Source: a virus
Strand: one strand, 5' to 3'
Length of the DNA: 64,000 nucleotides
Virus record (IMG/VR): IMGVR_UViG_3300047322_000608
Span: 1 to 64,000 of that record
Made by a program: the position numbers and the translations under genes. How positions within the stretch are numbered: position 1 is the first letter of the stretch; each line of letters opens with the position of its first letter. The notes below the pieces were generated by a model, which made no database searches, was not told where the DNA came from, and saw nothing but the letters and a program-made list of their open reading frames with translations. Positions 3,792 through 63,464 of the stretch are shown here, in pieces.

Positions 3792-4102
3792 AAGTTAATC
3801 CAAGGTGCTGCCTTTGTGCTGCTGTACCAGAGAAAGCCAGTGTCTGTGTCGAGCACGAGGTATTTGGCAGAGGAGACTGGGGCCACGCCTCCAAGAGCTT
3901 GCTCGTCGACGGGATTGGCACTTCCACCTCCAGCGCCAATCTCTTCCCAGCCAGTCTTGGTCCCGATCGGAGTCGTCTTCCGATACCATTTCCCGGTTAC
4001 CGCCTGGATCACACCGGTCCCAGGCACTCCGTCAAGAACGCCTTCCGGATCGTTCATGACCCAGTTGAGTTCGGTTTGAAATTGAATGGCAGTTGCGTCC
4101 AT
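3788..4102 (-). CDS. small virion/fibre-associated protein
   Basis: start MDATAIQF; PEGV..G..G....G.WY.K.....TGW module typical of phage fibre proteins. Confidence 0.65.
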   Translation of the reverse strand: MDATAIQFQTELNWVMNDPEGVLDGVPGTGVIQAVTGKWYRKTTPIGTKTGWEEIGAGGGSANPVDEQALGGVAPVSSAKYLVLDTDTGFLWYSSTKAAPWINL

Positions 4103-4113
4103 AAAGATGAGGT

Positions 4114-6435
4114 TTAAGGATCTGCGGCGGTTGAAATAATCACCCACGCACCGTTGACGTAAGCGCGAAGGCCGGGGGTGTTGTCGGTCTGGTAAACAAG
4201 CATTCCATTCTCAGGCGTTCCAATCGCCGTCTTTTCAGCTTTGGTGATGCCACGCAAAATCACTGGACCTTCTGCGGTAACTTGGAACAGGTTTGTGGGA
4301 GTGCTTGGATAATTCGCTCCACCTGAAAGCCTGACTTTGAATGAAGGGATTCCAGCCGTCTCAATAGCATTCAGCCACCAACCAGCCTGTACGTTCTGGG
4401 CTTGCGCTGGCCCACCAGCAGGATTCCACGCATCTCCAGACATAATCAAAGCTGGCGAGTTATTGGACACACCTGCCGTTGCTTGGCTGATATGGCTGAC
4501 TGCAATTCCGTCTCCTCTTCCGTTTAGCGGTGTGGACACACCCATTGGATCAGCCGCGTGAAAAGTCGAACCGGCCAAATACTCAAACGTCCCGCGCCGG
4601 GCTTGCCAGATCGGCCAAACAGCAAAGTTGTCCAGCAGATTAAGGGAGGCGATTGAGCTTTTGGTTGAATTGTCAGCTTGATCCCATGTGTCCGCTTTCT
4701 GCCAGCGAATTTCACCAGCTGAAATGCCAACCCCAGTGGTCGTGTAAAGGGTTGTTCCAAAACCAGCAGAAGCCGAACTTGGAGAGTTGGTTCCGGCGCT
4801 GGATGCGATAATCCTCGTGGCATCGTTAACGACGTTGACGGCCATTTCGTTAGTTCCAAAGTTCCGAACCTCTAAAAGATTGCCGGTGGTGTGGGTTCTA
4901 TCCGTATTAAAATAGAAAGGGTTTACTCCATCTGAAGAATTTGGTCGCAAGTGGAATAGATCAATACTATGCAGGCTGTCAATCGCGCTTAGATTTATTC
5001 CATTTGTTGTGGATGATCCTTGAAGCGTAAGGCTCCCGCCGTTTGTATTGCTGGCGATGTAGATATTAGCTCCAATATCTTCGGCGTCGATTTGCAGGCT
5101 TCCGTTGACAGGAGAAGCGCCATTGCGTGTGTTAAGAAGAATCAAGTTTCCGTTATTTTCTCCGATGGAAATATCGCGTACCGACACTAGGGCTTCTGCT
5201 CCAGATGGAGATGGATAAAATGTCTCAGTGTTTGTTCCAACGAATAAAGCGTTTGAAATCAGAGGTCGCCATGTAAAATTAACTGGTTGCAAGTTAGTAA
5301 CTCCACCGACAATGTTGGTCACCCAATACCCTCCAGCACTGCTATAATGCCCAGCACTGTTTAGAAAGAGATTGCCGCTCCCATCATAGCCAGAATTGTC
5401 CGCGACCAAGAAGTTTGTCGATCCACGGTCAATCAACCGAATTTGTGCCAACCCATCAGGTTGAACAACCACCTCAAACTGGCTATTCGTTCCGTTGCTC
5501 GTAGCCGCAAGCGTTAGCCCTGCGAAGGGCACAGGATCACTCGTCGCGCTTACGAGAAATTTGCTGTGGTTGGTGAACGAAAGCGCGTTGTCCACGGCGG
5601 CGATATGAAGATACGTGGTAGGAGACTCACCCTGCGCCTGATCGTGAACGGCAACAAATCCGTCGCTATAATCAGGAACCCACCACGGACCGACACTCGC
5701 GCCAATGTCTACGCTCGCACCGATACCAGGGACCAGCGAAGTCAATGTGCCATCGTTCTGCCAATAGCCTTGTGCTGAGATGCCACCTCCAACCGGGGGG
5801 CGTGCAACTTCCGTCCAGCCAAGGCCGTTGTTGTAAAGCCAAAGCGACTCGCCGTAGCGAGTTGGTGTCCACGGGCTATTCAGGTAGTTGGTCTTCGTCG
5901 GATCAGCAACCTGCGCCTGCGTGGCGGGCATCGTGAACGAGTTGGTAGAGTTGTTGATCAGGATGATGAGCTGTCCAAAGCCGTTGCCGTTATCGACGTT
6001 TACCTGATCGGTGGCCGAGTTGGTTGACGATCCGGTGAGTCTCAACGTGGTCTTGTTGACCGCCGTGACGACGTTTGCGCCTGGATTGAGCGTGGCGGTG
6101 AAGTTGCCAAGCAGTTGCAGGAAGCCCTCTACGAACTCGCCGTGGGAGATCAGGTTGGTGGTCGAGACATAGAACGGACCTTTAACGGGATCGAATCGCG
6201 TTACGAGAATACCGGCACTGTTCGTCCATTCCCCGGAGACGCCGTTGGTCAGGATGAAATTGAAGATGTCGCCTGGGGTATCGGGGTGGCCGGTGCTGAA
6301 ATTGAGATAGATCCGGTGCGGGGCCGGTCCGTTGGTCTTGAATGATCCTGGGTCGAAGCTTTCGAATGTCGGATTTGCCGCTCGCAACGGAGCGGCGAGC
6401 GCGAGGATCGCCAGCGCAAAGAAAATTCGGTTCAT
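4114..6435 (-). CDS. tail-fibre-like protein with N-terminal signal peptide
   Basis: 773 aa; MNRIFFALAILALAAPLRA (basic, hydrophobic, ending LRA); C-terminal ITKAEKTAIGTPENGMLVYQTD..GLRAYVNGAW fibre-type module. Confidence 0.7.
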   Translation of the reverse strand: MNRIFFALAILALAAPLRAANPTFESFDPGSFKTNGPAPHRIYLNFSTGHPDTPGDIFNFILTNGVSGEWTNSAGILVTRFDPVKGPFYVSTTNLISHGEFVEGFLQLLGNFTATLNPGANVVTAVNKTTLRLTGSSTNSATDQVNVDNGNGFGQLIILINNSTNSFTMPATQAQVADPTKTNYLNSPWTPTRYGESLWLYNNGLGWTEVARPPVGGGISAQGYWQNDGTLTSLVPGIGASVDIGASVGPWWVPDYSDGFVAVHDQAQGESPTTYLHIAAVDNALSFTNHSKFLVSATSDPVPFAGLTLAATSNGTNSQFEVVVQPDGLAQIRLIDRGSTNFLVADNSGYDGSGNLFLNSAGHYSSAGGYWVTNIVGGVTNLQPVNFTWRPLISNALFVGTNTETFYPSPSGAEALVSVRDISIGENNGNLILLNTRNGASPVNGSLQIDAEDIGANIYIASNTNGGSLTLQGSSTTNGINLSAIDSLHSIDLFHLRPNSSDGVNPFYFNTDRTHTTGNLLEVRNFGTNEMAVNVVNDATRIIASSAGTNSPSSASAGFGTTLYTTTGVGISAGEIRWQKADTWDQADNSTKSSIASLNLLDNFAVWPIWQARRGTFEYLAGSTFHAADPMGVSTPLNGRGDGIAVSHISQATAGVSNNSPALIMSGDAWNPAGGPAQAQNVQAGWWLNAIETAGIPSFKVRLSGGANYPSTPTNLFQVTAEGPVILRGITKAEKTAIGTPENGMLVYQTDNTPGLRAYVNGAWVIISTAADP

Positions 6436-6955: not shown

Positions 6956-9900
6956 CTAGAAACTGAGCGCCAATTCCCGCGCTCTAGCAGCCGCCGCGGG
7001 GTTCGCTGCCCGTTGTTGATCCTTCTTCTGAGACCCGGCGAATGGCGCCAGGCCAAGGTGGGCACCGTAGTAATTGAACAGCCGCACAGCATCGGAAACC
7101 GCAGCCTGGCCTTGGTCGTCCAGGTTGGCGAGGATCTGTTTGTAATCGCGTTCGCTCGGGGTTACCGCAAACACGTAGCGCAATGGATGCCTTGTCTCAA
7201 ACGAACGCTTCACGTAATCGGCCGGGTTGTCCTTTCCGGCTTTCTTGGCTTCTTCTAGGGCGCCCAGGTACATCTCTCGGAACTCGGCTGGGTCGTTCGC
7301 GTATGCGGCGTATTCCATGCGCGCGATCCAAGGCGTGATCGGCGTTGGTGTGTTGTAGCCGCCTCCACCCGATCGGATGCTCATGCCTAGATCCCGGCCG
7401 GTAACGCGCAGGTAATTCTCGGCGTTGATCCTGCGGACGACGCGATTCTCGACATTGTCCAGGTCGAAAGCGTGATTGGCGATCTGCATGTACTGCAGCA
7501 TGCCGCCGCCGCCAATCGCCGAGATCATGGGCCGGACGACGTGCTGATAGTCCGCGTCGAAGTTCTGGTTAATGAAGGCGGAAACAGCTTTCTGGATCGA
7601 TTGGAACGATTGCATGGCGACCACTCGCTGATCCACAGACAGCATCCGATTGTCTCCCTGGCCTGTTCCGACGTTGATGGCTGAGTTGAGTAGCTCTCCC
7701 CAAAGTCCGAACGTACCGATCCGGTTGATCCGTTCCTGAATCCCAACCCAATCGTTCCCGCTGAGAGGCACACGCAGACCGCGTAGGTTTCGCTTCTTGC
7801 CGAGAACGTCTTCGCTGTAGGCGTCCACGATCAGGGAGAGACCCAGTCCGCCTAGACCGACCGCAGCCATGCCCAGCATAGCGGAGCTGGCCGCTTTGAG
7901 GGAGTTCTGTTCCTGGTTGTTGAGCCGCAGTCCGGCGACCTGCAATGCCCTGCGGTAGCTCCAACCCAAGAGTGGCAGGCCGAACCGAACCAGGCTATTG
8001 TTGAATGCCCACAGCGGCATGGTTGCGATGTTCGATTCCAACGAGATCACGTTTAACCCGACCGAGTAGATCCGCTCCAGTTCCTGGTTAGTGAGTATGG
8101 TTTTGTCCCCGTTGTTCATCCGGTCCAGAGCGCCCTTGGCCATTTCCGTAAAGTCCAAGCCGTAACGGCGATGGTCCGCTTCCCACTTCTCGAAGCTCAC
8201 CTTGTCCTGGCTTTTGAGTTTGAGCATCTCTGCCGTGAGCTTGGCTGTTCCTGGATTAGCCCGAAGATATTCGATTCCCTTGGCCACGTAACCATCTGCC
8301 ATCTCGGAGAGCGCCACGAACAAACCGCGGTTGGCCGAGATCACCGTTTGAAAGAACGGCGAGAGCGGCCGGAGTGGAGTGTATTGCGCTTTCTCTCCGA
8401 CTAGGTTGAGCGTAGCCGATTGTAAATCCTTGGCTTGCCGGAAGAATCGAGCAGCCCGGTTGTGCTCTTCCCCACTCAGCGTGGTAAAGATGTCCGCGAA
8501 CCGGCGCGCAACCTCCGGATCGTTCAGGCCCATCTCCAGGAACCTCTTCTCGTATTGGCTCGCCTTCAAAAACTCCCATCCAAGCCCTTGAGCCAGGGAA
8601 CCCCCAATGTCCTTGGCTGTCATCTGGATCGTGCGCGCCGTCGCCTTGGCTGTTGTCGGCGAAAGTCCCCACTGAGCCATGATGTCCAGGGTTGTGGCAA
8701 GCTGCGCAATGGCAGAGGACGGCTGGTTAACGAGCAGCGAAGCCAGCTCTCCGGATAACCGGATCCCCCAGCGGAGGCTTCCCTCTTCCTGATTGCCGCG
8801 CGTGAAATAGGTCGAAAGGTTTCTCAGGAACGTGTCCAGGAACGGAGCCCGCTCTTCCACCTTGCGCAGGTAGCGCAACCGATCCTCACCCGTCTTGAAC
8901 TGCGCCAGCATCGGGCTCGTGTCGGCTGCGAGAATCTTCTTGGCGGCAGCATCAACCTCTTTCTTCTGTCCGCTCGGAACAGTTCTTTCCGCCTGGGTGA
9001 GCGCGTCCTTGAGCTTGGCGACCAGCGCGCCCGCTTCGTCTTGAGCAGTCTGATACCAGCCGGCGAATGCTTTTCCGCCGCGGCCAAAGGTCGATTGCCA
9101 GGCAACCCGCTCCGCCATGCGCGCGTTATCGTTCCGATCGAACTTGTGATAGTCGAACCAATCGGCTGGCAAATGCTGGAACTGGCGCGCATCGATCATC
9201 GCATTGGGGACCATGCCTTCGATGTCCGCAACCTGGGTAGCCCCTTTTGGCTCAACCTTCCTGAGCGCATTATCGATCTCGTGATAGACCTGGGCCATCC
9301 GCAGCAGGCCGGACTGAACGTAATTCCCGACCGAATCCTGGCCGTTGTAGGCCTCGTGCAAACGCTCGAACATGCCGATCAGGTTTCCTCCGGCATCGTC
9401 GTAAGCCTTGGCAACCTCGGCCGTGTCCGCACTCATCGTCGTGCCGCTGTCATCGAGCACAGGCGTTGGGATTACCGATTCATCCGGCACATGGGTCAGC
9501 TTGTAGGCGAAGTCTTTCTCGACCGTATCGGTCATGTACTTCGCAACCAACGCTTGCGCCTTCGTCGGATCCTGGGCGTAGACGGTTCCAATGTCCTTCC
9601 AGGCTTCCGACGCGCCCGGGACACCTGCCGCTTCGTCCTTGGACCAGCCAGCCAGGCGCATGGTGTGGACCATGTTTCGGTACAGGTCTGAGAACTTGCG
9701 TTGAAAAGTCCATAGGCCAACAGGGATGTGTTTCCTTAATTGCCCGCCCAGCTTCGGATCCTGAACCAGCAATCCGCTTTCCTCGACCTTATGAACCCAC
9801 CATTGCCCGGAGTGATACGCGGAGTCCACGTACTCGCGCATCGCCTTCATGAACTCGGGCATCCGATCTTCGATCAACGGCCGGACCACGTCATGGGAAA

Positions 9901-12900
9901 GCAGCCATGGACCCAGCTTGGCGAACCATTGATCGGCTGCAACCTCCCGGTCAACTCCCTCTGCCGGTTTGCCGCGCTCAAGAAATCCTAGAACGGAATT
10001 GAGGAGGTTCTTCTCAAACCATTCCGACGTCACCTTCTTCCGCTGCCACCAGCTCTGCCCTTTGTTCAGCACATCCTGGACGTTGGCCAGCAGCCGGGAG
10101 TTTTTGTAGCCGAAATCCTTGTCGGCCTGGTTGCGGTAATTGTTCGTGGACCCGGCAAACTTATTCATGCCCTGCTCGATCAGGCCAGAGGAAGGCGTTC
10201 CTAACGCTCCAACCTTCTTTCCGTCCGCTCCGAGGACCAGGCCGGTAACGGTGTGATCGGTCTCCCGCATCATCGGATCGTAGAGCTTATTCTTCATGAT
10301 CTCGTTCACCTGCCGCTTGACGCGCTGGTAATCCGAGCCCATGGCCGTCTCGTCTCCGTTCTGAGCAGCCTCTTCCCGCAGCTTCAACCAGGCTGCCATC
10401 TGGCCTACAGAGGATTTGAGCTGATCCGGGGTGGTTACAGGACCAGAGATAGCCTTGAAGTTGAGCGTCCGTTCGTCCCATTTCGGGTGTGCATCCATCG
10501 TGGTCGGCACACGGATCTTCATCCCGTCTGTGAACACGGAATCTTCGGTCTGCTTGATCTTGGCGACCAGCTTCTGGATCTGGTTCTCGTAGATCGGCAT
10601 TGCCGCATCTCCCGCGGCGATCACCTTATCCGTGTGTTCGGCGGCCCGGTTGGCGCGCGTTATCATTCGCAGCGCCTTCCGATTCTCGAGCTTGGCCGCC
10701 TCTTCCAGCTTCGACGCCTTAGCCACACTCCGGATGCCAGCCAGGATCTGTTCGTTGGTCTCCTTGCGTTGGTCCCGAAGTTCCTGTTCCAGCGCAGCCC
10801 GATCAGTTCCAGACGCCATCTTGCGCACCTGGAGCATGGCCAGCTCACGCTGGTTCAGCTTTCCGAAGGCAACGACTGTGGCGAGCAGTGCCTTGGCATC
10901 CGGGCTATCCGCTGCGAGCTGCGCGTAACGGTGCAAAGTTGGGTCCATCTCGGAAGCGTGACGGATGTAAGCCCGGATCTCCGATGCCGGCCGGGTGAAG
11001 TCAATGCTCGGATCACTCGCCATCTGGTCCAGGAAATTGAAGAGCTTCTCCCCTTGAAGTGCATCCCCGGTGTAAAGGCGGCGCATGGCGGCAACGGTAT
11101 CCCGATCGATCGGCTGCCCAATCTTCCCTTCGATGTCTTGATACTGCTGGAACGCCACGCCCAACGATTTACCGACTCGCTCCAGGTCACGGATGTCTTC
11201 GTAGAGCAGCTTCTTTACGCCCTTCTTGATCAATCCGGACATGAACTCGGCGTCTTTGAAATTGTCCAGGATAACCTGGTGCTCAGTCAGGAGCCGCTGC
11301 TGATTGGCTTTGACCCGCGGCTCCATCTCTTTGGCCTTGGTTAACCCTCGGCCAACCGTTGACATCTCTCGCTCAAGCGCTGAGGCAGTTCCCACATTTA
11401 CGTAATCAAGGTTCTCTGGGTGGGTTAGGGCATCTTTGTTTTGGCGTGGCTTGAACCCGACGATGCCTTTGACCTGGGCCTCGTTGATCTGTCTTTCCCG
11501 AACTGTCTCCGTGTTGTGCAGACCGAACAAGGTGCGAAATCCTTTGAGCGTTAATCCTCCAGCCACCGCGGCCGATGTCCTCACAAATTCGATCCAGGTA
11601 TTTATCGCAGCCTCGTTGTTCATCCGGATCGACGGATCAACCTTTGGAAGTGGCGCATTTGTTCCAGCCGGAAGCAGGAACTCCAGTGGATCGTTTCGCT
11701 GTATGTTGAGCATCGCCGCCTCGACTGAGTCCTGAACGAGCGGCGCGCGGTCAATCTCGCCTGTCACCGGATTGTAGGTCTCAGCCAGATCCTTCGATCC
11801 GATCGATGGCGTGTGCCATTGCATCGTTCGGGCTGTCTCGGGGATCTGAACGCGAGCCGGTTTGTACGTCCCCGAAATCTTGCGGCCGACCCCGATTACG
11901 TCGTCCAGCAAAGTCGGGTCCTTAATCCCGATCATCTTGGCGACCCATTCCAGGAACCTGGTCCACATGGTTTTGTTGACGCCTGTGGACTTGATCGATC
12001 TCAGGAAGTTCTGGAATTGGGGGTTGGAGAACGCTTCCGCAATGAACTCGGCGTGGTTGGTCAGGCCGTACTGATTTGTCACACCCTGCTTGTCAGCCTG
12101 CTCTTTCGCAAATTCGTAAAGGAAGGTCAGCTCTCCTCGGTTCCGGCCGGTCTCCAAGTTGAAGACCGTGTTCCCGTGGACGTATTCATGGAGGAACGTC
12201 CGCAATGAACTGCCGTCTGCGAAAGCCGGCTCGTAGACGTTCGCGGTATGGGTCAGGGGATCGTAGCGTCCAGCCGACTCCCTGCCGTCTTCCCCTCTGT
12301 GTTCGCCGCCGACCGACAACCTGGTGCCGTGATCGCCGAGAGCTATCAGGTCATTAACGATCTTGCTGTCACCGAAGAGGCCAAGCTTGTTGAGCGCAAC
12401 GAGTGCCTCGAACGCATTCTTGGATTTAGAGAGGACATCTCGGACAATGCCTTGGAATCGCGGGGATGTGTCCTGGTCTCGGCCAATGTCCGTCGTGGCG
12501 AGATGACCCTCTTCGCCAGCCGCCCCGCCGCCTACGCCTTCATCCGAACCTGGCGTTGGTTCTTGCGGTAGGGCGATTTCAGCACCTGTCGATGAAGGTT
12601 CAGCCACCCCTTCGCGCTCTCCGCGTCCATGCTCCCCAGCCAGCTTTTGAAGCTCGTCGACAAACCGAGATCGGAGTTGGCCTTGAGTAATCTCGGGATT
12701 GTTTGTGAACTCTTCATGTACGTTATTGTAAGCGCGGAACAGAGACCTGTAAAACTTGTCCAGTTTATCTTCTTTGATGTCGGCAACGGCCTTGGCCACG
12801 TCCGGGTTATTCTTGATCGTCTCCGACAATCCTTTGACGACCTCTGCGTGCCGGTCTTTGGGAGCCGTATCCAGATCCCAGGATAGTTCGTCGGCAATCG

Positions 12901-15757
12901 GCTGGGTCCTAGATTTCGAGATCCAGTTAGCTCCTCCTTCAAGGCGCTGCTCTTTCTGGATCGATCCCAGCTTTGCTTCGGCCGCTTCTGCGACTGGAAG
13001 CGGAGCAACTTCCCTCACGGACTGGCTGCCAGCATCAGCCTTCGCTTCCAACTGCGGTTTGATCTTGGCCCATTCTTCCGGAGTGTATTCGTGAAAGACC
13101 TTGGACTGCTTTGCCTCTCCCGTGCGGATCACGCCCAACGGTTTCCAACCCTCCTTGATCAGCGACTCGTAGCTCTTGGCCGCAATCGCACTGGCCTGCA
13201 CCCTGTTAACGCGCGGCTTGCCAGTCTGCTTGAGCGTGCCGACAACAATCTTCCCGTCCGGCCGGCGAAAGACTCCCAGGCTGTTGGTGGATTCGTAGCT
13301 GTTACCTTCCTTTTCAATGGCGGATTCACCGGGACGCCCGAACAACCCAACCTCTTCTTTGCCAGCAACCGGTTCAAACCAGGCGTTGTAGGATTCTGGG
13401 ACCTTGGAAAGCCAATCGGAGGAAGCAGGTGTTTCAGATTTCTTTAACGTCGGATAGTCAGCCAGCACGTTATCGGGAACAGCCTTCCCTTCGGCGAGCG
13501 CGTCTCTGACAATCTCTCTGTGGTTCTCGCGGGTCCGGTGTTCAGCGTCGGCCGTAAAAACTCCTCCGCCAGATTCAATCATCCGCTTGTTCTGAGCAAC
13601 GACTTCGGCTTGCGTTTTCTCCCAAGGAGCCTTCGTGGAAGGCGCGGCCCCTGCTTCGACCTGGGCAGGAGCCGCTGGGGTGGGTGGTTTAACTTCCGTC
13701 GTCGCGGCCTTTTCGACTGGCACCTTCCTTTCTGCCGCAGGTTTCTCAGACAAAGCTTTGGCACGCGCACGAGCCACGGCCGCATCAACCGGACTGGCTT
13801 CCGCAGTTGGCGCTTCTACCGTTGCCGTTCCGGTAGTGAGTGCATCGGCGTCGATGCCGATCGTCTTGAGCGCGGCCTTATTCTCGGGGCTCAGCTCGAC
13901 CGCTGCTTGCTGTAAGCGATCGCCAGCGCCTGCTTGAGCGCCTTTTTCTTTGAGCTTGGCTTGCTCTTCCCGATCTTGTGCCTCTTTTTGTAGCTGTGCA
14001 TTATCTCCGACACGTTGCTGCTGAACGTCGCTCGGCTCTTCCCTTTTTTGAGTGGCATCTTCGACTCCTTCCCTGATGAATTTGTATTGTTCTTTCTGGC
14101 CGGCCGGAAGCTGCTGGATGTACTGCCGATCCGCGTCGGTCATGGTTCCGGCGACTTCCTTGTTCGCGATCTCCAGAAGGACCAGCTTCTGTTCCGCGGT
14201 CACCTTCCCGTAGGTCTCGGCTACGTGCGTATCCGGAGCGCCCCAGGCTGCATTCCGCAACTCTCTGGCTTGTTCCCGGGACAGCTCGGACTTGGGGAAC
14301 AGTTCCTGGATCTCGCGCACGGTCTTGGCTTCGTTCCTGCGAATCTCCTCCACCACGGTCAGGCGCTCTTCTTCGGGCGTTGCAGGGACAGCAACGTTCT
14401 TCGACTCCCGCTTCAACTCCGCTGTGGCCTTGGTCTGCGCTTCCAGGAGTAATCGCCTGGAGTCCATGACGGCCTGCTGGGTTTTGGAGATCGGCGCGGT
14501 CGGGAAAGGTTCAGGCGGCGCGCCAGGTGTTGGCGCGGCCGGTTGATCCGGCGCTGGAGGCGGAGGTGGGGTTTGGTCCGCTGCGGCTGATTCGGCAGGC
14601 CCAGCGGGGGGAGTTGGTTCTGCCGGAGTTGGCAACCAATCCTTCGTGGGCCCACCTCGCAGGGCTGTAATCGCCGCAGCAGGCATGCCCGCCAGAATCC
14701 CGGTAGCCGTAGCATTTAGTAATCGGCTCCATTCGTCCTTTGTGAACTCGGTATCCCGCTTCTTGGGATCGGCATACCGCTCGCCCAGAATGTTGAAGAA
14801 CTCCATGGCGCCCATCCCAGAACCAGCGACGAGCAATTCCTTGGGCACCGTCACAGCCTTGGAATCGATCCAGGTCCGAACCGCCTCCGTGGAAGCCTTC
14901 TCGCCGAAGATGCCCTTGAGTATCCGCTCGGGGATTACAGCGCCAATGGATGCGCCTGCGCCTGAGATTAAGGCCCCTACCTTCGCATCCTCTGGCGTGA
15001 CACCTTCCTGTCCGGAAAGCTCGCCATATGCCCCGCCAGCCCCCAATGCGCCGAAGTTAGCCATGGAAGCGCCAATGCTCGCCATGTGACCGGCTGCGTC
15101 CTTGACGACTTTGGCGACCGGCTTGGAAAGAGCGCTTTCCATGACCTTTCCGGCCGCGAAATCTTCCAGCTCCTTCCGCTCCACCGCAGTTAAGGTTCCC
15201 TCGATTACCTTTCGCAAGGCACTTCGGGCCGCCGCCTGGCCAAAGAAGGTCGCAGCTCCGGCTTCCGTGCCGGGCCCGGGCGCCATCGCCGTGCCAGCCG
15301 CGGCGAACGTGAGCGCTTCGCCAACATTCGGGATCAACTCGCCAACCTTTCCAGCCACGTATTGACCGGCTGCAGGGAAGCTGGTCATCGCCTGCTGGAT
15401 TGTGGGGACGCTCGCAGGAGCTTCTTCGGCTGTCTGCTTGAGCTTGCGCTTGTACAAGTCCAGGTAGAATTCCTTGGCTCCTTGAGCACCCAGCGTGTCG
15501 GAAGCCAAAGCCAAGGCTCCGGCACCAGAAGCTTCCATGCCCAGGACGCCGCGGCTAAATCCGCGTCCGAGCTGCTCGGTCATGGACGATTGCTGGACCG
15601 CTTGCTGTTGCTGGACCTTCTGCCAGTCAGCCAGGAAATCAGGGAAGGCCGATAGCGCTTCGGGTTTGTACCGCTCGGCAAATCCCCGCATCACCTCTTC
15701 GTCCGGTGTGGTGTCTCCCGGATTATTCTCCCGATAGAATTGGACGAGCGTGTTCAG
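6956..15757 (-). CDS. giant internal virion/ejection (large polyvalent) protein with zincin metallopeptidase domain
   Basis: ~2930 aa; LHEYVH...EFIAEAFSNPQFQNFL...WTRFLEWVAKMIG zincin motif; third gene of the ejection-protein trio; frame is open upstream of the track start (15694) to a CTG at 15757 overlapping the upstream TGA. Confidence 0.8.
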   Translation of the reverse strand: MNTLVQFYRENNPGDTTPDEEVMRGFAERYKPEALSAFPDFLADWQKVQQQQAVQQSSMTEQLGRGFSRGVLGMEASGAGALALASDTLGAQGAKEFYLDLYKRKLKQTAEEAPASVPTIQQAMTSFPAAGQYVAGKVGELIPNVGEALTFAAAGTAMAPGPGTEAGAATFFGQAAARSALRKVIEGTLTAVERKELEDFAAGKVMESALSKPVAKVVKDAAGHMASIGASMANFGALGAGGAYGELSGQEGVTPEDAKVGALISGAGASIGAVIPERILKGIFGEKASTEAVRTWIDSKAVTVPKELLVAGSGMGAMEFFNILGERYADPKKRDTEFTKDEWSRLLNATATGILAGMPAAAITALRGGPTKDWLPTPAEPTPPAGPAESAAADQTPPPPPAPDQPAAPTPGAPPEPFPTAPISKTQQAVMDSRRLLLEAQTKATAELKRESKNVAVPATPEEERLTVVEEIRRNEAKTVREIQELFPKSELSREQARELRNAAWGAPDTHVAETYGKVTAEQKLVLLEIANKEVAGTMTDADRQYIQQLPAGQKEQYKFIREGVEDATQKREEPSDVQQQRVGDNAQLQKEAQDREEQAKLKEKGAQAGAGDRLQQAAVELSPENKAALKTIGIDADALTTGTATVEAPTAEASPVDAAVARARAKALSEKPAAERKVPVEKAATTEVKPPTPAAPAQVEAGAAPSTKAPWEKTQAEVVAQNKRMIESGGGVFTADAEHRTRENHREIVRDALAEGKAVPDNVLADYPTLKKSETPASSDWLSKVPESYNAWFEPVAGKEEVGLFGRPGESAIEKEGNSYESTNSLGVFRRPDGKIVVGTLKQTGKPRVNRVQASAIAAKSYESLIKEGWKPLGVIRTGEAKQSKVFHEYTPEEWAKIKPQLEAKADAGSQSVREVAPLPVAEAAEAKLGSIQKEQRLEGGANWISKSRTQPIADELSWDLDTAPKDRHAEVVKGLSETIKNNPDVAKAVADIKEDKLDKFYRSLFRAYNNVHEEFTNNPEITQGQLRSRFVDELQKLAGEHGRGEREGVAEPSSTGAEIALPQEPTPGSDEGVGGGAAGEEGHLATTDIGRDQDTSPRFQGIVRDVLSKSKNAFEALVALNKLGLFGDSKIVNDLIALGDHGTRLSVGGEHRGEDGRESAGRYDPLTHTANVYEPAFADGSSLRTFLHEYVHGNTVFNLETGRNRGELTFLYEFAKEQADKQGVTNQYGLTNHAEFIAEAFSNPQFQNFLRSIKSTGVNKTMWTRFLEWVAKMIGIKDPTLLDDVIGVGRKISGTYKPARVQIPETARTMQWHTPSIGSKDLAETYNPVTGEIDRAPLVQDSVEAAMLNIQRNDPLEFLLPAGTNAPLPKVDPSIRMNNEAAINTWIEFVRTSAAVAGGLTLKGFRTLFGLHNTETVRERQINEAQVKGIVGFKPRQNKDALTHPENLDYVNVGTASALEREMSTVGRGLTKAKEMEPRVKANQQRLLTEHQVILDNFKDAEFMSGLIKKGVKKLLYEDIRDLERVGKSLGVAFQQYQDIEGKIGQPIDRDTVAAMRRLYTGDALQGEKLFNFLDQMASDPSIDFTRPASEIRAYIRHASEMDPTLHRYAQLAADSPDAKALLATVVAFGKLNQRELAMLQVRKMASGTDRAALEQELRDQRKETNEQILAGIRSVAKASKLEEAAKLENRKALRMITRANRAAEHTDKVIAAGDAAMPIYENQIQKLVAKIKQTEDSVFTDGMKIRVPTTMDAHPKWDERTLNFKAISGPVTTPDQLKSSVGQMAAWLKLREEAAQNGDETAMGSDYQRVKRQVNEIMKNKLYDPMMRETDHTVTGLVLGADGKKVGALGTPSSGLIEQGMNKFAGSTNNYRNQADKDFGYKNSRLLANVQDVLNKGQSWWQRKKVTSEWFEKNLLNSVLGFLERGKPAEGVDREVAADQWFAKLGPWLLSHDVVRPLIEDRMPEFMKAMREYVDSAYHSGQWWVHKVEESGLLVQDPKLGGQLRKHIPVGLWTFQRKFSDLYRNMVHTMRLAGWSKDEAAGVPGASEAWKDIGTVYAQDPTKAQALVAKYMTDTVEKDFAYKLTHVPDESVIPTPVLDDSGTTMSADTAEVAKAYDDAGGNLIGMFERLHEAYNGQDSVGNYVQSGLLRMAQVYHEIDNALRKVEPKGATQVADIEGMVPNAMIDARQFQHLPADWFDYHKFDRNDNARMAERVAWQSTFGRGGKAFAGWYQTAQDEAGALVAKLKDALTQAERTVPSGQKKEVDAAAKKILAADTSPMLAQFKTGEDRLRYLRKVEERAPFLDTFLRNLSTYFTRGNQEEGSLRWGIRLSGELASLLVNQPSSAIAQLATTLDIMAQWGLSPTTAKATARTIQMTAKDIGGSLAQGLGWEFLKASQYEKRFLEMGLNDPEVARRFADIFTTLSGEEHNRAARFFRQAKDLQSATLNLVGEKAQYTPLRPLSPFFQTVISANRGLFVALSEMADGYVAKGIEYLRANPGTAKLTAEMLKLKSQDKVSFEKWEADHRRYGLDFTEMAKGALDRMNNGDKTILTNQELERIYSVGLNVISLESNIATMPLWAFNNSLVRFGLPLLGWSYRRALQVAGLRLNNQEQNSLKAASSAMLGMAAVGLGGLGLSLIVDAYSEDVLGKKRNLRGLRVPLSGNDWVGIQERINRIGTFGLWGELLNSAINVGTGQGDNRMLSVDQRVVAMQSFQSIQKAVSAFINQNFDADYQHVVRPMISAIGGGGMLQYMQIANHAFDLDNVENRVVRRINAENYLRVTGRDLGMSIRSGGGGYNTPTPITPWIARMEYAAYANDPAEFREMYLGALEEAKKAGKDNPADYVKRSFETRHPLRYVFAVTPSERDYKQILANLDDQGQAAVSDAVRLFNYYGAHLGLAPFAGSQKKDQQRAANPAAAARARELALSF

Positions 15758-51356: not shown

Positions 51357-51938
51357 TCATTGGCCCGGGGGGAGAACTTCCCCAGCCGCCGCGTCCAAGA
51401 GCCGCTTCATATCCGCTTCCGCAGCCTTAGCCTCCAGCTCCGCCGACTTCATTCGTTCCAAACGATCCGCTTCCTTCTCATCCCCATCCTCAATCGCCTT
51501 CTCCGCCAGACGCTCGTTCAACGATGGGCCGCCAGAACCGCCTCGCTTCGCTTTCCTGGCCTCCCTCTTCTGCCTAAACTTCTCCTGGGCTAAACGGTTC
51601 TGCTCCCTTCGGTCCTCCTCGTTCTGGATCGACTTGTAGTAAGCATAATTGACAACGCGATACGCAAACGGACCAATCTTTACAATCCTTCGACCCTCAT
51701 CACCAGGGGTCGTCGTCTTAGGATCCGGCCGACACAGATATTCGATCGCTCTCTCAATAACATCCGCCGTCGTCCCGAACGTTGCCGCGATCAAAACCGG
51801 ATTCATTTCAATGTAACCCCCGTGAACTTTGTCCGGCATCGCCTCCGATATGATGTAGGGCATGAGCGCGTAAACCTCAATTCCAGCACCGACCATCGAA
51901 CCACGGTAAAGCTTCGAAAAAATCTTGCCGTAAGTCAT
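51357..51938 (-). CDS. phage replication initiator-like protein
   Basis: YGKIF..LY.GSM.G...EMNP....IE.L..PDP......GRRI.......VVNY..Y.....EDRREQNR.AQ pattern of phage rep N-termini. Confidence 0.6.
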   Translation of the reverse strand: MTYGKIFSKLYRGSMVGAGIEVYALMPYIISEAMPDKVHGGYIEMNPVLIAATFGTTADVIERAIEYLCRPDPKTTTPGDEGRRIVKIGPFAYRVVNYAYYKSIQNEEDRREQNRLAQEKFRQKREARKAKRGGSGGPSLNERLAEKAIEDGDEKEADRLERMKSAELEAKAAEADMKRLLDAAAGEVLPPGQ

Positions 51939-51967
51939 TCCTTCTTGTCTCACGCCAAAAACACTAC

Positions 51968-52062
51968 ATCAACACAAATCTTACACGTAAGCAAAGGTAA
52001 GCCGAATCAGCATAGGAGTAATCAAAATAAGCACAGTTAGAGTAAGAGTTAGAAGAGAGAGT
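51968..52062. repeat. iteron-like heptamer array, candidate replication origin
   Basis: GTAAGCA 51987, GTAAGCC 51997, ATCAGCA 52006, GTAATCA 52018, ATAAGCA 52027 (spacing 9-12 bp), then an AG-rich tract; directly upstream of rep-like gene. Confidence 0.45.
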
Positions 52063-52816
52063 TCGTCGTCAACCTCAAACATGGCGTCATCCATTGAAAA
52101 CAGGCTGCACTACACTCACGGGTAACCGCAAACACAAGACGAATCACCATCCCAGATTTAGCCCCGGATTCCATGAAAGTTGAGAAGGGAGACCCATCAC
52201 AGCCAGCAGGACCACCCCGCCCTTCCCCGGGACACCCCCACCCAATCGGCTGCCAGGTCGATTCCAGGACTGAGCCACATTAAGCCGATAATGTCACCCG
52301 ATGCTGCTGCTGCTGGCCTTTGCGACTATCGGCGCACAGTAGGCAACGTGGCGGTTGGCTTCCGATGGCAGGTTACAGACTGCCCACAGAGAGCCCGATA
52401 GCCCTACGTCAAACCCCGATGGAATCATCAGGAATGGGAGTTGGGTGAATACACCCAAGTCAGTAGGCAAGGTATAGTCTCTCCTAACATTCTTAGGCTG
52501 ACCTAACATTTGGGCTTCCTGGATCTCGGCTTTGAGTAACCTTTTGCCCCCTTTCCTTGTAACCTTGGCTTGGGAGTAGTGTAGCCGGTCGCTCGTTTGA
52601 GCGTTTACCTGACTCGTTTGAGTCAAGCGGCGGTCCTTCCGGTGTCTCGGGTTGAACTGAGCGCAGGTGTGGGCGGCAGGGGTCGAAAGGCCTGCCATGG
52701 GATTACCACGGGGTTTGCCGTAGTTTCCGAGCGTATCGCGATAACCCGTCAAGGCGAAGCAAGGTCGAAACGGTCTTAGATACTCCAATTCCTAACGGGA
52801 TACAGTGGGAACTCAC

Positions 52817-52893
52817 AAGCTTAACGTAGCCCAGTTACTCGTTTGAGTAGCTGGTCGGTGACAAGCCCGGGGAAACAATACGGAGTCAAGCTT
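52817..52893 (+). ncRNA. twister self-cleaving ribozyme (type P1)
   Basis: P1 AAGCU/AGCUU, UAA, P2 CGUA/UACG, GC, 10-bp P3 hairpin, P4 UCGG/CCGG, L4 UGAC-AA-GC, GA-GUC(A) T1 partner; predicted cut U52822/A52823. Confidence 0.9.
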
Positions 52894-52921
52894 AACGATA
52901 GGAACAAGATACGAGGAATAT

Positions 52922-53350
52922 ATGTCAGCAACCAGTTTGATCAGTTTCGACGCAAGCGCCAACGCGGTAACGTCTTACAACGAGAAGATGAAAACCACTA
53001 CCTTGCGCTTGCTTACGGCGAAGGAGTTCAAGACGGCGCGTGGGCTCAAGGGGAACGCCGCTTCGGTGGCTTACAATGCCTACATTCGGGAGCATGGTCT
53101 GGCGAACACGGCGGGTTTGGCGGCGGCGCTCACGTCGGGTGAGTTGTTGGTTCGTTCGGCGAGGGACAGCTCGAAGTCCCTGAACGTGTCGTTTGTCAAG
53201 AAGTCTGCCATCAAGGACCCGGCCGTGAAGTCTGCCCCTGCCCCCGAAGTCACGGCTCTGGAGACTGAAGTTGCCAACCTGAAGGCTATGCTGGCTGGGC
53301 TTGGCGCGAAAGCGGAAGAGATTGCGGCGGCGCGCCCGAGCGCGGTGTAG
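52922..53350 (+). CDS. first early gene, hypothetical basic protein
   Basis: GAGG RBS and TATG start; 142 aa. Confidence 0.75.
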   Translation: MSATSLISFDASANAVTSYNEKMKTTTLRLLTAKEFKTARGLKGNAASVAYNAYIREHGLANTAGLAAALTSGELLVRSARDSSKSLNVSFVKKSAIKDPAVKSAPAPEVTALETEVANLKAMLAGLGAKAEEIAAARPSAV

Positions 53351-58876: not shown

Positions 58877-59563
58877 GTGACGAAAACAAAGAACAAGAAA
58901 CTCAAGTTTAGCGTGGAAGACCTGCGCAAGCTGAACCCCTGCCACGAAGCGCTGGCGTGGGTTGATAAGCAGCATGGCGAGTCTCCATCGGATCTGTGGC
59001 AGATGTGCCCTCGATCGGATTGGATGCTATGGCTGCTTGCACGGGTTCGACCGTTGTCCAAGCCGGAAGCGGTGACATTGGCGTGCCGGTTCGCGCTCAA
59101 AGTCCTGACGGTATTCGAGACCCGCTATCCATACGATAAGCGCCCGCGGCAGGCGATTGAGGCAGCTCAGGCGTGTCTGAAAGACCCGTCTGCTTCTGCT
59201 GCTTATGCTGCTGCTTCTGCTGCTTCTGCTGCTTATGCTGCTGCTGCTGATGCTGCTGCTGCTGATGCTTCTGCTGCTGCTGCTGCTTATGCTGCTGCTG
59301 ATGCTGCTGCTGATGCTTCTGCTTATGCTTCTGCTTATGCTGCTTATGCTGCTGATGCTGCTGCTGATGCTGCTGATGCTGCTGCTTATGCTTATGCTGC
59401 TGATGCTGCTGATGCTTCTGCTGCTTATGCTGCTGATGCTGCTGCTGCTGCTTATGCTGCTGATGCTGCTGCTGATGCTGCTGATGCTGCTGCTGATGCT
59501 GCTGCTGCTCGCAAGAAGCAGGCCGACATTATTCGCGAGATCATCGGCAACCCATTCAAGTGA
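58877..59563 (+). CDS. Imm5-like protein with Ala/Asp/Tyr/Ser repeat
   Basis: GTG start after AAAGGAACA; DWM.WL, AC.FA..VL..FE..YP.DKRPR.AI.AA, ..QADI.R; 107-aa low-complexity insert. Confidence 0.7.
   Translation: MTKTKNKKLKFSVEDLRKLNPCHEALAWVDKQHGESPSDLWQMCPRSDWMLWLLARVRPLSKPEAVTLACRFALKVLTVFETRYPYDKRPRQAIEAAQACLKDPSASAAYAAASAASAAYAAAADAAAADASAAAAAYAAADAAADASAYASAYAAYAADAAADAADAAAYAYAADAADASAAYAADAAAAAYAADAAADAADAAADAAAARKKQADIIREIIGNPFK
59189..59509 (+). repeat. 321-bp trinucleotide-based coding repeat (GCT/GAT/TAT/TCT only)
   Basis: 107 consecutive codons all of form KMT. Confidence 0.95.
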
Positions 59564-63386: not shown

Positions 63387-63439
63387 GCGCGAAACGGGCT
63401 TCGGCCCGTCTGCTGGTATGCGCCAGCACCGATGAGCGC
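63387..63439 (+). ncRNA. hammerhead self-cleaving ribozyme, type II, U4C core variant
   Basis: GCGC-GAAAC-GGGC(UUCG)GCCC-GUC-UGCUGG(UAUGCG)CCAGCA-CCGAUGA-GCGC; predicted cut after C63410. Confidence 0.85.
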
Positions 63440-63464
63440 CCGGAATAAACCACAAAGTCTGCGC

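Follow-up and report, generated by a model that had tools for sequence, protein, structure and literature searches.

Ribozymes of the twister class have already been described near phage genes (PMC6765202; PMC13725137), and what purpose twisters and hammerheads serve for bacteria and phages is an open question (PMC6765202, PMC5408937). In the genome analysed here, a stretch at the 3' end of a non-coding gap reads as a twister. The locus raises the question of whether this stretch is a genuine, working ribozyme and, if so, what self-cleavage at the head of an operon would be good for. It is a clean case for such a question, as one complete twister separates a long non-coding leader from the first ribosome-binding site in the operon, even if soil and rhizosphere metagenomes are the only known source of the phage, which limits direct work. 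Our answer is that the element is, in all likelihood, a genuine type-P1 twister, encoded in sense orientation in the leader that precedes a plus-strand phage operon, which would cleave between U52822 and A52823 and define the 5' end of the operon mRNA. Judged from its sequence, the twister is very probably active. The data show its sequence and fold, the complementarity of its pseudoknots, the statistical significance of the match, its uniqueness in the genome, and its orientation and position; its cleavage, its transcription and its effect on the mRNA are what we infer.

The operon head and the fold of the element

The phage record (IMGVR_UViG_3300047322_000608) comprises 75,869 b and is rated complete (CheckV). 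The first 64 kb of this record (64,000 nucleotides) are referred to as the window, and all positions given without a further name are positions in it. Public DNA runs with the region come from soil and rhizosphere metagenomes, and four soil/rhizosphere DNA runs yielded contigs that are identical to the window in the ribozyme region. The runs listed for the phage included no RNA run.

Genes were assessed with a codon-usage score trained on the long genes of the genome. This score marks the minus-strand gene upstream of the gap as real, and the plus-strand ORFs that overlap it (51357-51953) were rejected as genes on the same grounds. In 51954-52921, no frame carries a coding signal according to this score. 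The gap is ~970 nt long, with a minus-strand gene on one side, a plus-strand operon on the other and the ribozyme at its 3' end. The first gene after the ribozyme encodes a protein of 142 aa. It has 12 homologues in which the start of the ORF is conserved (the protein search listed 13 proteins, with E-values up to 1e-13), and no Pfam, PHROG or Atlas annotation was found for its product. The plus-strand block that follows the ribozyme contains genes for an AAA_5 ATPase and a DUF7192 protein, many small ORFs, a PAPS-reductase-like gene and an Imm5-like gene.

An earlier, sequence-only reading of this DNA had placed a twister at the head of an early operon, 28 nt upstream of the first ATG. The placement holds: the minus-strand gene extends to 51953, the non-coding stretch covers 51954-52921 and the plus-strand genes begin at 52922. 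The spacing was also confirmed in the sequence, in which the ribozyme ends at U52893, 28 nt before the ATG at 52922. Calling the block "early" is plausible, as a guess from its gene content only (small ORFs, AAA ATPase, DUF7192 and PAPS-reductase-like genes).

A search of positions 52000-52900 revealed no sigma-70-like promoter site, and no repeated promoter-like k-mer was found in the whole genome. Because a promoter was not located, transcription of the ribozyme is an assumption. The cumulative GC skew of the genome reaches its minimum at about 52 kb, i.e. inside the non-coding gap, and the region 51954-52921 may be an origin or a regulatory region. Short tandem repeats also occur in the gap, for example at 52475-52491 and 52494-52510, both of which end in CCTAACATT. 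The coordinates of all features are collected in Table 1.

Table 1. Features of the ribozyme locus and its surroundings (window positions)
Feature	Position	Strand	Description and basis
Large minus-strand genes	1.6-47.5 kb	-	Include DnaB helicase and the unannotated 2912-aa ORF
2912-aa ORF	6956-15694	-	
Plus-strand genes	from about 47.7 kb	+	
Gene upstream of the gap	51357-51953	-	Codon score +0.28
Non-coding leader (divergent intergenic region) upstream of the ribozyme	51954-52816	+	No positive codon score; ~870 nt
Upstream hairpins	52590-52603 and 52610-52625	+	CUC-GUUU-GAG in common with the tip of twister P3
Predicted type-P1 twister ribozyme, complete	52817-52893	+	Rfam RF03160, own model R1, MFE fold
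P1	AAGCU 52817-21 / AGCUU 52889-93	+	5 bp; sequence and fold
Cleavage loop	U52822, A52823, A52824	+	
Predicted scissile bond U52822/A52823	52822-52823	+	U-A step beside P1, aligned to consensus UAA
P2	CGUA 52825-28 / UACG 52879-82	+	4 bp
T2 pseudoknot	G52865/C52866 with C52830/G52829	+	
P3 (optional helix)	52831-40 / 52845-54	+	10 bp, loop GUUU (fold)
Third hairpin copy, tip of P3	52836-52849	+	
P4	UCGG 52855-58 / CCGG 52867-70	+	4 bp, closes L4
L4	52859-66	+	UGACAAGC
T1 pseudoknot	UGAC 52859-62 / GUCA 52885-88	+	4 bp, read from sequence
P4-to-P2 linker	52871-78	+	8 nt
3' strand of L1	G52883, A52884, then GUCA 52885-88	+	
Shine-Dalgarno-like GAGGA and ATG of first operon gene	52913-52924 (GAGGA 52913-17, ATG 52922)	+	Sequence
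First gene after the ribozyme, 142 aa	52922-53350	+	Codon score +0.325; conserved, function unassigned
Type II hammerhead candidate	63387-63444	+	28 bits, E = 0.16, gathering score 37

The twister family is defined by the helices P1, P2 and P4, the pseudoknots T1 and T2, about ten conserved nucleotides in L1 and L4, and a U-A scissile step beside P1 (PMC5408937, PMC6154101). At the sequence level, the element has all of these features, with a P1 of 5-6 bp. Its minimum free energy fold, computed for 52810-52900, consists of exactly P1, P2, P3 and P4. P1 contains the palindrome AAGCUU, and U52822 and A52888 could add a sixth pair to it. The third pair of P2 is U-A in place of the consensus C-G, both strands having changed.

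The U-A cleavage site of twisters is documented (PMC6154101, PMC5408937). In the window, U52822-A52823 lies directly 3' of the 5' strand of P1 and corresponds to the less conserved U and the highly conserved A of the family. A conserved guanine sits at the bottom of P2 in twisters (PMC6154101), and G52883 is, by its position, the candidate catalytic guanine. The elements that the sequence-only reading had listed (UAA, P2, T2, P4, L4, T1 and the GA) were all recovered at the same coordinates in the sequence, the fold and the alignments, and the cleavage site and guanine it had predicted fall on the corresponding positions of the consensus alignment.

Model scores and covariation of the pseudoknot

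A scan with the Rfam twister-P1 model (RF03160), which had been named beforehand as the check on the sequence-only reading, returned a full-length match (model positions 1-68) at 52819-52891 with 37.5 bits. The E-value was 1.5e-4 when both strands of the 64-kb window were searched with 4227 families, and 1.4e-6 in a local search. The match is the only twister match in the 75,869-b genome, and it stays below the gathering score of the family, which is 67.2 bits. At gathering thresholds, Rfam produced no match anywhere in the window. The same collection also gave an isrG match at 59235-59530 (+) with 42.9 bits and a bias of 18.3. It lies on a long GCT/CTG triplet run inside an ORF and was discarded as a low-complexity false positive; the repeat itself is striking.

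To put the score of 37.5 bits into context, we collected comparison twisters with two patterns. A loose pattern of the twister core yielded 39 IMG/VR loci, and a pattern specific for the T1 variant described below yielded 18 metagenome loci. When 13 of these phage or metagenome loci were scored with Rfam, 16 twister-P1 matches with 31-73 bits were obtained, only two of which exceeded 67.2 bits. The other 14 comparison twisters have complete cores and stay below it too; a score below the gathering threshold is normal for this sample. As a cut-off, the gathering score is a matter of curation rather than of biology, and the twister-P1 threshold misses most of the phage twisters in the sample that was scored.

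We also built a covariance model of our own (R1) from an alignment (A3) of 30 distinct viral and metagenome twisters, from which the window copy was excluded. R1 detected 52816-52894 with 48 bits (rough E-value 1.6e-13), and the next best site in the whole genome reached 12 bits. The R1 score is somewhat inflated because a pattern based on L4 and T1 of the window had led to four of its 30 training sequences. All invariant columns of the alignment are present in the window, i.e. UAA, GCC, CGGU, C-AAGCCCG and GAG. The P4/L4 segment CGGU..CAAGCCCG is invariant in 30 of 30 comparison twisters, as is the GAG of L1 in the same alignment.

Neither covariance model scores pseudoknots, and T1 is thus a separate piece of evidence. 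In the window, L4 reads UGAC where the consensus is UCCC, and its partner reads GUCA where the consensus is GGGR. The exchange of CC for GA in L4 is compensated by an exchange of GG for UC in the partner strand, and full complementarity is kept. The two variable T1 pairs are paired in each of the 30 comparison twisters, with the types CG/GC/UA at one and CG/AU at the other. T2, by comparison, provides no covariation information because its positions are invariant in all 30. The UGAC/GUCA form of T1 was also found in four metagenome twisters (L045, L047, L056 and L058), the P1 and P2 sequences of which differ from those of the window and from one another while the pairing is kept. Among 26 distinct IMG/VR twisters retrieved with the unconstrained pattern, none has this form, and going by these sequences it is a minority form. 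A further 11 metagenome contigs (L046, L049-L055, L057, L061 and L062) share a conserved element with a twister core and a UGAC/GUCA T1. The 5' flanks of this shared element diverge near the cleavage site, and it resembles the terminus of a mobile or repeated element.

The modest score could be taken to mean that the element is a decayed or crippled twister that has lost a useful cleavage rate and is now a mere leader sequence. With 37.5 bits, it lies at the low end of the 31-73 bit range, and its linker is long; two findings described below, fragments in the leader that resemble a second, broken twister and the non-consensus core CCGAUGA of a hammerhead candidate in the same genome, also favor decay. 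However, decay would be expected to strike the invariant nucleotides and the helices first, and here every invariant nucleotide, all helices and both pseudoknots are intact, the changes in T1 being compensatory. The low Rfam score is accounted for by the T1 variant and by the insertions in P3 and the linker. As to the latter, 8 nt is long for a natural range of 4-9 nt, and linkers of 7-9 nt were seen in other twisters. We therefore regard decay as quite improbable and the element as an intact twister with a variant T1.

Repeats in the leader and ribozymes in related loci

The tip of P3 has two relatives further upstream in the leader. The 10-mer CTCGTTTGAG occurs in three exact copies in the 75.9-kb genome, compared with 0.07 expected per strand. 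All three are on the plus strand within 260 nt of the leader, with none elsewhere in the genome. Each copy is part of a hairpin, and the lower stems of the three hairpins differ in sequence while their pairing is kept. The similarity extends beyond the hairpins: the first is preceded by GUAGCC, which is identical to ribozyme positions 52826-31, and the second continues into GAGUCAAGC, an exact copy of the 3' strand of T1/P1 of the ribozyme at 52883-91. The upstream hairpin region is partially paralogous to 52826-52867. These hairpins and strand copies may be relics of another twister that has broken down, or else decoy strands or hairpins for protein binding.

The repeated hairpin is also what could speak for a chance resemblance, in which the stretch is not a ribozyme at all and twister-like sequence happens to surround a CUC-GUUU-GAG hairpin with another job, such as protein binding or a promoter-type hairpin; the tip of P3 is, after all, one of three copies confined to the leader. 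We consider this reading barely credible. P3 adds little to the model scores, and the match depends on the conserved core, of which P3 is not a part. In addition, E-values from 1.5e-4 to about 1e-13, together with the complementarity in T1 that the models do not score, weigh against coincidence, and no support was found for an N4-type virion RNA polymerase. The idea of N4-like hairpin promoters read by such a polymerase was dropped, as the 2912-aa ORF produced no Pfam, PHROG or PDB-sequence match.

If the twister is accepted as genuine, the hairpins could still matter for its function. It could be a regulated twister within a system specific to this leader, in which the hairpins could be binding sites for a protein of the phage or its host, or could serve as decoy strands; a related idea is that the twister and the downstream hammerhead candidate delimit an RNA module of 10.6 kb. 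If this were true, cleavage, and hence the fate of the operon mRNA, would be conditional. We give such regulation little probability.

An 11-nt direct repeat, CAAGCTTAACG, occurs on the plus strand on either side of the ribozyme core, with identical copies at 52816-52826 and 52887-52897. The palindromic P1 accounts for six of its bases but not for the other five, and the repeat could be a trace of the acquisition of the element.

The search for relatives of the locus was extended with the 142-aa protein. Viral-contig scans seeded with this protein, both alone and as an alignment, revealed no orthologous locus, nor did a metagenome scan for the gene. A genome scan found one homologue with 54% identity in a Verrucomicrobiia MAG (DASVNK010000012.1; positions 4001-4336 of locus L063). 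No twister lies upstream of it, and synteny is limited to that one gene. A weak R1 match in this MAG (23 bits) was rejected because its L4 and T1 are broken. In 401 sampled genomes of the same phylum, no further homologue of the 142-aa protein was detected. The MAG protein is the sole cellular homologue found and hints at the host lineage.

The genome of the phage also contains a type II hammerhead candidate on the same strand as the twister, 10.5 kb downstream and just after a stop codon (63380-82). Its stems I-III and GUC site are intact, but its core reads CCGAUGA where the consensus is CUGAUGA. The nearest IMG/VR relatives of the ATPase, with 35-37% identity, are encoded in loci such as L002 and L003, in which the pairing of the ATPase and DUF7192 genes is kept. 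L003 has a canonical type II hammerhead at 2574-2630, which starts where the ORF before it has its stop codon and leaves 38 nt to the ATG of the ATPase gene. A type II hammerhead also follows the DUF7192 gene in both loci (L003 4755-4813 and L002 4754-4812). Twister and hammerhead ribozymes are known to be associated in shared gene contexts (PMC6765202), and the twister of the window, the hammerhead candidate and the hammerheads of the relatives fit this published association. With a twister here, a hammerhead candidate at the far end of the block and hammerheads at the matching site in distant relatives, the pattern suggests that RNA cleavage at the head of the operon is a selected trait, whichever fold provides it.

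Several of the comparison loci carry more than one ribozyme. Two twisters lie 400 nt apart in L045 (143-194 and 537-588), two twisters and a twister-sister are found in L026 (2499-2553, 2812-2874 and 5163-5234), and L017 contains two type-P5 twisters (1660-1727 and 2114-2170). A crude survey of the ORFs neighboring 30 twisters found a same-strand start within 80 nt in only 13 of 28 cases and serves as weak context.

Likely use of the predicted cleavage and comparison with known ribozymes

Once transcription has passed about position 52893, the RNA would fold into a double-pseudoknot twister and, by internal transesterification, break its own chain between U52822 and A52823. This would free the upstream leader, the end of which would bear a 2',3'-cyclic phosphate, and the operon mRNA would start with A52823 carrying a 5'-hydroxyl. 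Because the ends of the ribozyme lie in P1, nearly the whole fold would stay on the downstream product. The mRNA would keep P2, P3, P4, T1 and T2 as a compact structure of 71 nt, with the start codon of the 142-aa gene 28 nt further on. The likeliest use of such a reaction would be to give the mRNA one defined, structured and non-phosphorylated 5' end, irrespective of where transcription starts upstream. In this way, the operon mRNA would be uncoupled from the ~870-nt non-coding leader, as with an engineered ribozyme insulator, and its stability and translation would probably be affected.

The pseudoknots persist in the 3' cleavage fragment, and the 5' end of this fragment is buried (PMC8782182). 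Together with the retention of the fold on the downstream product, this favors a role as a natural insulator that defines the 5' end of the mRNA.

The sequence-only reading had further proposed that a 5'-hydroxyl end capped by ribozyme structure resists 5'-monophosphate-dependent decay, which is consistent with the behavior of RNase E. It is reasonable to expect, by analogy with engineered precedents such as RiboJ (PMC6206723), that such an end would protect the mRNA, depending on the host. Stabilization is not assured, because in some bacteria a 5'-hydroxyl marks RNA for degradation, as in the case of glmS (PMC6765202).

This leads to the alternative that the ribozyme is active and uses the same chemistry, but serves another purpose, namely mRNA decay or limited expression of the operon, or formation of the 3' end of an upstream non-coding RNA. 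After cleavage by glmS, degradation by cellular RNases lowers expression (PMC6765202), and two papers describe the biological role of twisters in bacteria and phages as unknown (PMC6765202; PMC5408937). The upstream region of ~870 nt is non-coding, sits at the minimum of the cumulative GC skew and could be an origin or regulatory region. On the other hand, the body of the ribozyme would remain with the downstream product and lie 28 nt upstream of a good ribosome-binding site, a placement like that of engineered insulators that raise expression (PMC6206723). A structured RNA in the upstream leader was rejected, as the region has no excess structure (z = -0.02) and no Rfam match. We thus hold another purpose to be possible, if unlikely, and keep the insulator-like definition of the 5' end as the preferred role.

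The locus adds an example of a known ribozyme class in a generally described context and not a new kind of element. The class to which it belongs is the type-P1 twister (Roth et al. 2014, as cited in PMC6765202), for which the crystal structures 4OJI and 4RGE are available (PMC6154101). The element shares with RF03160 the order P1-P2-(P3)-P4 with the termini in P1, the U-A step at P1, the invariant nucleotides of L1 and L4, and the pseudoknots T1 and T2. The optional P3 is present in 78% of annotated twisters (PMC6154101). The window copy differs in its T1 (UGAC/GUCA instead of UCCC/GGGR), its 8-nt linker, its P3 of 10 bp and its score below the gathering threshold.

The type II hammerhead (RF02276) is likewise a small self-cleaving RNA that, in phage and prophage contexts, occupies short gaps between genes of phage gene blocks in sense orientation, and three active copies are located near phage-like genes in Desulfovibrio vulgaris (PMC8782182). 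Its fold and active site are unrelated. After cleavage, each product of the hammerhead keeps a portion of the structure, while in a P1 twister nearly all of it remains with the downstream product.

The glmS ribozyme is comparable as a self-cleaving RNA in a bacterial 5' UTR, the mRNA product of which has a 5'-hydroxyl. It has another fold and requires GlcN6P as a cofactor, and once it has cleaved, the RNA is degraded and expression drops (PMC6765202), whereas nothing suggests a ligand for the twister of the window.

A functional parallel to the proposed role is provided by insulators of the RiboJ type. RiboJ is synthetic, belongs to another ribozyme class and had its effects measured in E. coli, whereas the effect in the window would be deduced by comparison. 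When placed in a 5' UTR, it increased protein 2-10-fold and transcript about 2-fold in E. coli (PMC6206723). In both cases, the self-cleaving ribozyme is placed downstream of a promoter or leader and upstream of the ribosome-binding site. In RiboJ-type insulators, the variable upstream RNA is removed, a structured 5'-hydroxyl end is left and downstream expression rises (PMC6206723).
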